Virus record (IMG/VR): IMGVR_UViG_3300045988_094645
DNA length: 57,970 bases
Direction: 5' to 3' (one strand)
From: a virus
In this document: positions 13,339 through 14,417 of the stretch, one piece after another
Layout: the number at the start of each line of letters is the position of its first letter
How positions within the stretch are numbered: the first letter of the stretch is position 1
Notes under the pieces: model-generated
The model's input: the letters and a program-made list of their open reading frames with translations, nothing else
Databases searched by the model: none
Told to the model about the DNA's origin: nothing
Position numbers and translations under genes: made by a program

Positions 13339-13668
13339 TTAATGGTATAATTGATATTTCTTCCCAATTTTATCAATCTCCTCAGCTTCCATTGGTCTAA
13401 ATCCAATACAAGTGAGAGTCCCTTCAGGACTCTCTTTTTCCAGCTCTGTCCTGCAAGCATCATAAATCAAAAAGTAATCATGGAATAAGTCTGTATCGAG
13501 ACTTATATCCATATGATACATAATGCCATCTCTTTCCCGAACCACTTCTTTGCTTCCCCAAAGAATCTTTTCCAAAAGAAAAGCAATAGAAGCATGGGAA
13601 ACTTGCGCAGCTAGCTTACCCGGAGACATATTTAAATCTTTTCTAGCTATAATTAACTGTTTATACAT
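13339..13668 (-). CDS. pth2: Pth2-family peptidyl-tRNA hydrolase (109 aa)
   Basis: MYKQLIIARKDLNMSPGKLAAQVSHASIAFL matches the PTH2 N-terminal signature (vvRtDL.MgkGKiaAQcsHAa). Confidence 0.55.
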   Translation of the reverse strand: MYKQLIIARKDLNMSPGKLAAQVSHASIAFLLEKILWGSKEVVRERDGIMYHMDISLDTDLFHDYFLIYDACRTELEKESPEGTLTCIGFRPMEAEEIDKIGKKYQLYH

Positions 13669-14417
13669 TCTTTACCTGCTTTCAAAAATGCTTTAAAATT
13701 TTGGGAGTTGCGGTCAGGAATTGCAAAATAAATATTTGGAATATTATAATTGCGGGCTGTGTCTATGAGCAAGGTTGCGACCGTATACGGATCTTGCATA
13801 AAAACTCCACAGCCCCAGGCTCCCGCGATTAGATTTTCCACACCGTTTTCCTTGGCAATTTGATACATAAAGTGAATTCGATCTTCAAGAACTCTATCAT
13901 TCTCGCTTTTACTCACGTTCTGGTATCTATGCGCCGTTCGGAAATTCGGGGCCGCGCAAGTTATAACATCTACTTCCTTTTGTTTGTCATTCCGCTCGAA
14001 TACTACACTAGGAGAATACAGCGCTCTATTCAAATATAAAGCCTTATTTAACCTCTGCCGATTCCATGCATAATATGTTCCATCAAAAGCAAGAAGGATA
14101 GGGTAAAGATTAGATTCATGACAAAGAGCCTCTTCCTGCGCGGGACTGCCTTCTAGGAAGAAACCGCCAGGACTTTTATAACTGGCATAGTTAAGAATTG
14201 CTGTTCTACCATTATCAGATAAATTGAATAGGCAAGATACACTATCCATATCCGTTAGAGTAAAAGCTGATTTCTGATTGCCGGATTCGTGCTGTGTAAA
14301 AGAATCTGGGCTATATACATATGTGCGATCAATAGATAACTTAGTATTTGCGGCAAGTCTAGTTTTAATATCTTCATAATGCGCTCGTGCCTTGATTGCG
14401 CGCTCTTGTTTTGTCAT
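13653..14417 (-). CDS. bacterial-type poly(ADP-ribose) glycohydrolase-like macrodomain protein (DUF2263/TIGR02452), 254 aa; overlaps pth2 by 16 nt (operon)
   Basis: catalytic signature GGG-x6-8-QEE present as SPGGFFLEGSPAQEEALCHESNLY. Confidence 0.55.
   Translation of the reverse strand: MTKQERAIKARAHYEDIKTRLAANTKLSIDRTYVYSPDSFTQHESGNQKSAFTLTDMDSVSCLFNLSDNGRTAILNYASYKSPGGFFLEGSPAQEEALCHESNLYPILLAFDGTYYAWNRQRLNKALYLNRALYSPSVVFERNDKQKEVDVITCAAPNFRTAHRYQNVSKSENDRVLEDRIHFMYQIAKENGVENLIAGAWGCGVFMQDPYTVATLLIDTARNYNIPNIYFAIPDRNSQNFKAFLKAGKECINS

Follow-up and report, generated by a model that had tools for sequence, protein, structure and literature searches.

A bacterial-type PARG gene overlapping a deletion allele of Pth2 in a TAG-recoded phage of gut Bacillota

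The gene pair considered here is found in a 57,970-nucleotide stretch of phage DNA, IMG/VR record IMGVR_UViG_3300045988_094645, the whole of which is referred to below as 'the window'. One of the two genes encodes a bacterial-type PARG and the other a protein of the Pth2 family of peptidyl-tRNA hydrolases, the latter in the form of a deletion allele, with the two genes overlapping. The original prediction took the pair to be a set of matched antidotes, i.e., as reversing the actions of ADP-ribosylating and of tRNA-acetylating host toxins. The reading favoured instead, at a probability of roughly 0.45 and as based upon sequence comparison, is of an RNA-damage and translation-rescue accessory pair which has been kept together within one phage family, rather than of an antidote that is specific to DarT or to GNAT toxins.

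The PARG gene and its shortened Pth2 partner

The coordinates, lengths and overlapping order that had been proposed for the two open reading frames (ORFs), with both on the minus strand, were all confirmed. The PARG gene (13,653–14,417, minus strand) is intact, running from an ATG to a TAA and encoding 254 aa, and was assigned to bacterial-type PARGs (DUF2263/TIGR02452) by profiles and motifs. Matches to the family lie far above chance, i.e., 90.8 bits versus PF10021 (cut-off 23.5) and 185.5 bits versus TIGR02452 (cut-off 50; E = 1.4e-54), the latter spanning residues 10–244 of the 254, with the protein aligning as well with the PARG structures 5ZDF (D. radiodurans) and 3SIG (T. curvata) at an E of about 1e-21. 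The catalytic Q94-E95-E96 stands in register with the QEE of D. radiodurans and is invariant among 27 diverse relatives. The diphosphate loop, G199-A-W-G-C-G-V-F206, likewise aligns with the D. radiodurans loop and, among those same 27 relatives, G199 along with G202–F206 are invariant and A200 is nearly so.

The motif that had been described as GGG-x6-8-QEE is present here in its QEE portion, with the literal GGG absent. That is, the signature reads S-P-G-G-F-F-L-E-G-S-P-A-Q-E-E, or P83-G84-G85-F86 at its start, such that a phenylalanine takes the place of the third glycine. F, M, Y or L is seen at that position in most of 134 PARG homologues, versus G in 19, with this P-G-G-F a subfamily variant rather than decay and the subfamily itself mostly phage borne. 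Relative to its relatives the gene has a dN/dS of 0.10–0.18. By profile, motif and alignment, the window protein is a bona fide bacterial-type PARG, just as had been predicted. It belongs to the same Pfam and NCBIfam family as the PARGs of T. curvata (3SIG), D. radiodurans (DRB0099; 5ZDF) and S. coelicolor (SCO0909), matches the first two residue for residue over both QEE and the GAWGCG(V/A)F loop, and shares approximately 30–35% identity with solved PARGs, as estimated from the alignment. Unlike those solved PARGs, it is phage encoded, possesses the phenylalanine just described, and has Pth2 for a partner rather than a ligase and a kinase.

The Pth2-family gene (13,339–13,668, minus strand; ATG to TAA) encodes 109 aa. 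It matches PF01981 at 61 bits (cut-off 23; E = 1.5e-16), doing so in two separate stretches, and falls below both NCBIfam equivalog cut-offs (PRK04322/TIGR00283; 61.9 versus 126 and 47.7 versus 82, respectively). Retained are GK18 and D70-A-C-R-T74, as aligned with archaeal Pth2, of which K18 and D70/T74 are residues reported, from work with S. solfataricus, to be catalytic in the archaeal enzyme. As with archaeal and eukaryotic Pth2, including PTRH2 (Bit1), there is thus a PF01981 match in combination with the GK(L)AAQ and D-x-x-x-T motifs. The gut-phage and Bacillota subfamily nonetheless differs from those proteins in being about 145 aa in length, in having a beta-hairpin following helix 1, and in its D-x-C-R-T-E motif. 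Annotated Pth2 genes of phages include phiCD211 gp325 as well as those of XacN1, Sinorhizobium phage phiM12 and mycobacteriophages.

Close relatives all have a Pth2 of approximately 145 aa, so that, relative to these, 36 aa (108 nt) are missing from the window's Pth2. Of intact alleles the nearest is P0002, found on a 145.8-kb contig (L263) whose PARG is 94% identical to that of the window. In comparison with P0002, the missing 108 nt lie exactly between two GATT repeats, with a single GATT left in the window at 13,476–13,479 (minus strand), which is the deletion junction. Read from these sequences, the loss is a classic microhomology deletion. The segment lost, DWITGAETKVVCRAKNKDDLLRAVEAAKELGMEEYK, corresponds to P0002 residues 64–99 and holds two family-invariant residues (T71 and L83) along with eight that are near-invariant. 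In terms of the P0002 model and its numbering, the deletion takes the end of helix H59–66, strand E72–77, and helix H80–92, with absence of the latter strand and helix setting this allele still further apart from archaeal and eukaryotic Pth2.

AlphaFold modelling of the intact, 145-aa P0002 (pLDDT 95.3, pTM 0.88) gives the order beta1, alpha1, inserted beta-hairpin, short helix, strand 72–77, helix 80–92, beta, beta, alpha. Foldseek comparison of that model with the PDB matched only Pth2 structures, i.e., 1RLK, 3ERJ, 1Q7S/Bit1, 1XTY, 1WN2 and 2ZV3, at E = 3e-8 to 6e-5 and with target-normalised TM of 0.80–0.86. The equivalent model of the window's 109-aa protein (pLDDT 84.7, pTM 0.69) had no match in the PDB at E ≤ 0.001, with the best at E = 0.41, and does not display the complete alpha/beta Pth2 fold. 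The earlier identification of this gene as Pth2 consequently stands in terms of family membership, and structure prediction agrees for the intact relative; it does not extend to an intact Pth2 in the window itself, given the 36-aa deletion and a model that does not resemble Pth2.

Judging from the sequence and the model in combination, the 109-aa allele is probably inactive as a Pth2, with the pair in the window genome probably consisting of a PARG and a crippled partner. That is, with core strand and helix removed by the 108-nt deletion, PARG probably is the only one of the two that is functional there. Annotation of the window gene as a functional Pth2 is therefore unwarranted, as what is present is a deletion allele. 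As 18 contigs, drawn from four sources (ENA, Logan, NCBI and JGI samples), encode exactly the same 109-aa protein, this is a real, circulating allele rather than an assembly error. A broader Pth2 decay, as could be suspected given how many database Pth2 proteins are truncated or frameshifted, was considered and rejected. Particularly, small in-frame deletions and frameshifts are frequent in close homologues of both proteins (P0026–P0069 and P0124–P0224; Logan and ENA assemblies), and as the same assemblies carry multi-deletion variants of PARG as well, the broken Pth2s probably are mostly noise of assembly and gene calling. An apparent PARG–Pth2 fusion is also seen, as P0148.

The end of PARG and the start of Pth2 overlap by 16 nt (13,653–13,668, minus strand; ORF positions), and the same 16-nt overlap is found in L001 and L002 as well as in the gene calls of L266 and L267. 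Upstream, on the same strand, a GGAGG ribosome-binding site (14,424–14,428) can be read 6 nt ahead of the PARG ATG, and within a 200-nt gap upstream of PARG there is a candidate for a weak sigma-70-like promoter (14,469–14,496, 9/12 match). Approximately 20 nt past the Pth2 stop is a hairpin resembling an intrinsic terminator (13,271–13,316, minus strand), consisting of a 21-bp stem followed by a U run, with dG of -30.9 kcal/mol and z = -5.5, and with none of 200 shuffles folding as well. By sequence this hairpin likely ends the bicistronic unit. For the gene next downstream there is a separate near-consensus promoter, TTGACA-17-TGnTACAAT, at 12,906–12,878. Given overlap, hairpin and separate downstream promoter, the simplest reading therefore is of a bicistronic and translationally coupled unit, with the co-transcription that had been proposed thereby supported as a prediction, one to which the conserved overlap and the GGAGG also contribute. 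The 512-nt gap at 12,827–13,338, preceding that next minus-strand gene and containing its promoter, has no convincing ORF and no Rfam match.

Recurrence, neighbourhoods and competing readings

Searching IMG/VR yielded 215 PARG-encoding and 157 Pth2-encoding viral stretches, almost all of them on contigs of 90–220 kb. Counts of loci are for the best 80 PARG loci and the best 80 Pth2 loci, with partners scored within 5 kb, and neighbourhoods were viewed as ±5–10 kb per contig. A Pth2 partner is found for nine of the 80 PARG loci, that is, for seven of the window clade plus L060 (Pth2 0.7 kb downstream) and L091 (Pth2 upstream). A PARG partner is found for 12 of the 80 Pth2 loci, these being seven of the window clade, four of a sister clade in which Pth2 precedes PARG, and L173. 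Adjacency is also seen in L060, L173, L192, L221 and L261.

Within the lineage, PARG followed by Pth2, overlapping or abutting, is present at a FolD-flanked locus at 95, 64, 62, 54 and 52% PARG identity, with dS saturated. The syntenic landmark, coming before PARG and Pth2 in this phage family, is a FolD-like gene (tetrahydrofolate dehydrogenase/cyclohydrolase) which in the window is found at 14,976–15,806 (minus strand) and possesses seven in-frame TAGs. A block consisting of YonG_N ... FolD, small ORF, PARG, Pth2 is kept in L266 (62% PARG identity, 16-nt overlap), L268 (54%, abutting) and L267 (52%, 16-nt overlap), and dN/dS values of 0.05–0.18 for both genes indicate strong purifying selection. 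At the syntenic locus of L269 (51%) and L270 (50%), PARG is present with no remnant of Pth2, and in L271 (48%) PARG overlaps a gene for NAD-dependent DNA ligase (4,001–6,696). The equivalent locus of Enterococcus phage H1 (L264) has DHFR, Pth2, FolD and a tRNA array, with no PARG. Around the Pth2 of this cultured relative (record 121,359–131,748) are genes for thymidylate synthase, DHFR and FolD, with the tRNA array beginning approximately 3.4 kb away, and its linkage with FolD resembles that of the window.

Looking beyond these viral contigs, PARG is within 8 kb of five of 80 Pth2 loci in species-representative prokaryotic genomes, two of these being window-clade phage contigs and three being Eubacterium/Butyrivibrio contigs with other spacings. 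Among 50,697 sequenced phages, relatives of Pth2 are found in 45 records and relatives of PARG in 20 (Lak phages, Bacillus phage G), with both genes present only in one metagenomic megaphage, LR756511. Both families are already known in phages, and the Pth2 and Macro domains of jumbo phages have been the subject of earlier discussion (PMC7824862). From the recurrence data, the pair therefore is a conserved neighbourhood of one phage family, subject to repeated loss, inversion and solo occurrence. The expectation that the pairing would recur is borne out by other genomes of the lineage, where it indeed is overlapping, but it is not a general rule.

Related phages place both genes beside genes of RNA repair. 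PARG, RNA ligase and PNK/HD are contiguous in L097 (2,123–5,215), and these are the same three families as are found in the damage-induced D. radiodurans operon DRB0100–DRB0098, i.e., Rnl-PARG-PNK/HD, as discussed by Lu et al. (PMC11833690). In 11 loci, representing two sequence types, PNK/HD is just upstream of Pth2, with RNA ligase seen as well in 10 of the 11 (Rnl-PNK/HD-x-x-Pth2). A single cluster in L060 (1–8,223) holds an HD-domain fragment, an RlaP nucleotidyltransferase, a DHH/DHHA1 phosphoesterase, PARG, DUF4406, Pth2 and a SIR2-family protein, and in the C. difficile phage phiCD211 RtcB is 1.1 kb from Pth2. Pfam confirms RNA_ligase, RlaP, SIR2 and AAA_33 kinase domains in these related loci.

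Several further observations touch on these neighbourhoods. The L097 and L159 (2,147–5,414) groups share an RNA ligase–PNK/HD core, with ligases 76% identical, PARG being on one side of that core in L097 and Pth2 on the other side in the L159 group, such that the two genes resemble alternative additions to a single RNA-repair cassette. L060 can be described as a dense island of NAD/ADP-ribose and RNA-repair genes, its other ORFs including one that by eye is HNH endonuclease-like and another, of 127 aa, which is suspected of being SLOG-like, with no Pfam match. HD-only tblastn matches (25–29% identity), which in 12 loci lie upstream of PARG by some 4.5 kb, are weak and were not counted as evidence of RNA repair.

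In known RNA-repair cassettes, i.e., T4 Pnkp-Rnl1 against PrrC, bacterial Pnkp-Rnl-Hen1, that of D. radiodurans, and RlaP-associated ligases, the proposed logic is one of undoing host damage to the translation apparatus. Related phages would share in that logic, putting PARG or Pth2 beside ligase, PNK/HD, RlaP or RtcB. The window differs, having no ligase or kinase found in its 58 kb, with a PARG–Pth2 bicistron on its own not a described cassette.

The favoured reading then would be as follows. The two genes would constitute a translationally coupled accessory operon in the non-structural arm of the phage genome. PARG would cleave ribose-linked ADP-ribose, its likeliest substrate being ADP-ribose on RNA 2'-OH groups or RNA ends, as put there by ADP-ribosyltransferases of hosts or competitors. 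Where intact and 145 aa long, Pth2 would free peptidyl or N-acylpeptidyl groups from tRNAs that have dropped off, or become stuck, following attacks on translation. Large phages would have both as part of a mobile toolkit for RNA repair and NAD/ADP-ribose, useful jointly yet with each able to work alone. With regard to PARG, the bacterial enzymes SCO0909 and DRB0099 were the sole hydrolases, among those tested, to remove RhsP2-installed ADP-ribose from RNA 2'-OH, and bacterial PARGs protect E. coli from RhsP2 (PMC11833690). For jumbo phages, Iyer et al. have proposed a role for Pth2 in rescuing ribosomes once tRNAs have been cleaved, with peptidyl-tRNA being freed by the enzyme, and have suggested ADP-ribose derivatives, among them those of NAD-dependent RNA repair, as substrates of phage Macro domains (PMC7824862).

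Surviving best among the alternatives, if nevertheless rather unlikely, is that these are independent, moron-like accessory genes which happen to be adjacent in a variable arm, with no functional coupling and with their overlap a matter of inherited compact packing. Either gene, after all, can be found alone at the same locus (PARG in L269 and L270; Pth2 in Enterococcus phage H1 and in most of L111–L122), gene order is inverted in the sister clade, the two genes can be on the same contig while being 13 kb apart or, in LR756511, 373 kb apart, and in the window lineage it is Pth2 that is damaged with PARG intact. What such independence does less well to explain is the persistence of PARG–Pth2 adjacency with a start/stop overlap even where PARG identity has fallen to 52% and dS is saturated, as well as the re-forming of adjacency in other arrangements and neighbourhoods (L060, L114–L118, L173, L221, L261), and that both genes separately adjoin the same RNA-repair genes.

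A number of observations, some of which speak also for independence, weigh against the favoured reading. The partner is absent within 5 kb from 71 of the 80 PARG loci and from 68 of the 80 Pth2 loci, i.e., from about 85–90%, with these counts overstating independence due to phylogenetic clustering of loci, and each gene occurs alone as well at the syntenic locus (phage H1, L269, L270). The 58-kb window, out of a genome of about 147 kb, yielded no RNA ligase, PNK/HD, RlaP or SIR2 upon tblastn with phage queries, and neither window protein matches a PADLOC model. The retained codons of the deleted Pth2 are without relaxed selection (dN/dS of 0.06 versus intact relatives) and its AlphaFold model still reaches a pLDDT of 84.7; the deleted gene may be recent or may retain some function. 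As a test for a pseudogene that dN/dS is uninformative, because most of the divergence is older than the deletion.

It would be improbable, though in keeping with a number of neighbourhoods, that PARG instead serves a phage NAD+/ADP-ribose economy, cleaning up the products of phage SIR2, ADP-ribosyltransferases or NAD-dependent ligase, or that it degrades ADP-ribose-derived immune signals of hosts, with Pth2 a general aid to translation which possibly helps a recoded phage. SIR2 is within 5 kb of PARG in six loci, PARG overlaps the NAD-dependent DNA ligase gene of L271, P0211 and P0219 are fusions of PARG with PF10686 (DUF2493, SLOG-like), YpsA, DUF488 (DUF488-N3a) and DUF1653 are downstream of the pair in L268 (5,390–6,986), and Pth2 of Enterococcus phage H1 is near a tRNA array. 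In addition, degradation of ADP-ribose signals is a role that has been suggested for the Macro domains of jumbo phages (PMC7824862). Against this are the lack of SIR2 in the window by similarity search and, in Pfam scans of selected window ORFs, a lack too of ADP-ribosyltransferase or NAD-dependent ligase, for which no dedicated search was made. PARG-type enzymes furthermore have as their speciality the ribose-ribose glycosidic bond, as opposed to free derivatives of ADP-ribose. Nor did enrichment of Pth2 in recoded phages survive inspection: A crude ORF-length test scored 52 of 79 Pth2 loci as 'recoded' versus 14 of 80 PARG loci, with a clear gain (at least 2.5-fold) seen only in the window clade and the sister clade, the rest being noise of 10-kb windows, and this link was dropped.

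Quite unlikely too is a dedicated, two-step counter to RNA-targeting ADP-ribosyltransferases, in which PARG would strip ADP-ribose from 2'-OH groups of tRNA or rRNA and Pth2 would then clear peptidyl-tRNAs of stalled ribosomes.

Very doubtful is the original prediction itself, with PARG reversing the ADP-ribosylation, whether of DNA or of proteins, that is of the DarT, Tre or ParT type, and with Pth2 deacylating tRNAs that have been acetylated by GNAT toxins (TacT/AtaT), even though catalytic motifs are present in both window proteins. Known reversers of DarT are DarG/TARG1-type macrodomains or NADAR rather than PARG-type enzymes, and the window protein, by Pfam, NCBIfam and PDB comparison, is PARG-type rather than a TARG1/DarG-type macrodomain or a NADAR. 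Thymidine-linked ADP-ribose is acted upon by SCO6735 (TARG1-type), guanosine-base RNA by NADAR only and RNA 2'-OH by PARG only, i.e., the PARG class has been shown to act on the RNA modification of RhsP2 and it is other enzymes that act on base-linked ADP-ribose (PMC11833690), so that a DarT-type role, in reversing DNA ADP-ribosylation, is not upheld. Phages are reported to carry antitoxin-like ADP-ribosylhydrolases against DarTG (PMC11825919, PMC11481870, PMC13309987). What the window PARG has in common with those orphan antitoxins is in being a phage enzyme which removes ADP-ribose and which presumably is counter-defensive; it differs from NADAR and DarG-like hydrolases in being of a type directed at ribose 2'-OH or ribose-ribose bonds rather than at base-linked ADP-ribose. 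Bacterial Pth is reported to detoxify TacT-acetylated tRNA (PMC9241777), and a role against GNAT toxins would be plausible for an intact Pth2 only. In the window genome the Pth2 half of such a set of antidotes is deleted, none of the loci examined displayed a GNAT- or DarT-related context, and PADLOC, as indicated above, offers no match.

The TAG-recoded phage genome

The window is phage DNA, as had been supposed, representing a TAG-recoded siphophage of gut Bacillota of about 147 kb which is kin to Enterococcus phage EF1 and to Phass-1. Under the standard code, the longest ORF over its 58 kb is of 465 aa. Treating TAG as sense gives rise to plus-strand ORFs of 2904, 1323, 943, 646 and 639 aa at 16–54 kb (16,166–54,513), with reassignment of TGA or TAA providing no comparable gain in ORFs over the window. 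A tape-measure-like ORF (32,576–41,275) contains 103 in-frame TAGs, versus none in PARG and none in Pth2. Scans of the window for tRNAs and with Rfam found no tRNA, suppressor or otherwise, and no Rfam match. A structural protein of the window is about 40% identical to virion proteins of Enterococcus phages EF1, VRE9 and H1, and 53% identical to that of Phage Phass-1, the latter belonging to a described group of approximately 135-kb TAG-recoded gut phages with presumed Clostridia hosts (PMC10607447). Contigs with both of the exact window proteins are up to 147,225 bp in length and encode YonD_N and YonG_N (SPbeta-like) domains, and close relatives have been binned in metagenome-assembled genomes of Oscillospiraceae and Eubacterium. 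A nucleotide search with the PARG/Pth2 region against sequenced phages returned trivial matches only.

Neighbouring small ORFs of the window, as scanned using Pfam, matched only FolD along with a weak AbrB/MraZ-like match, and as the remainder are small and unmatched, the neighbourhood within the window itself provides no clue to function. At a greater distance, G+C content peaks locally at 48.6% (6,001–8,000) within a window that mostly is 32–39%, and this segment may be a recent acquisition. The peak covers a 274-aa ORF (7,457–8,281, minus strand), as well as ORFs overlapping it in antisense, with no Pfam matches; the N-terminal motif VVDTETAN of the 274-aa ORF is DnaQ/exonuclease-like by eye.

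A diversity-generating retroelement is present at the far end of the window (55,656–57,970, minus strand). Its reverse transcriptase ORF (55,656–56,873) matches RVT_1 at E = 1.8e-16, has a YMDD motif, and contains six in-frame TAGs. A template-like repeat (57,182–57,246) pairs with a variable copy (57,905–57,969) that runs past the window end, with 14 of the 15 mismatches between template and variable copy found at plus-strand T, i.e., at A on the template coding strand. Between the two repeat copies is a 164-aa ORF (57,315–57,809).

Implications for phage accessory genes

Phage Pth2 genes, phage Macro-type hydrolases and the biochemistry of bacterial PARGs are all already known. What is new is a lineage-conserved, overlapping PARG–Pth2 bicistron in TAG-recoded Bacillota phages, the parallel links of both genes to RNA ligase/kinase cassettes, and the window Pth2 as a microhomology deletion allele. 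The main yield, as it stands, is thereby an extension of known phage accessory-gene families to a TAG-recoded lineage.

Were the two-step counter to be true, unlikely as that is, then this would be the first phage-encoded PARG antitoxin and the first role to be assigned to a phage Pth2, with the recurrent loss of, or damage to, Pth2 reflecting a host-dependent selection on that second step. RNA ADP-ribosylation as a mode of attack has been characterised only over 2022–2025. Should the favoured reading be true, then phages of gut Bacillota would be carrying bacterial-type PARGs as portable antidotes to such RNA ADP-ribosylation, kept beside Pth2 in this lineage and, in sister phages, beside RNA ligase and kinase genes, and this would provide a hint as to where host systems that ADP-ribosylate RNA might be sought.

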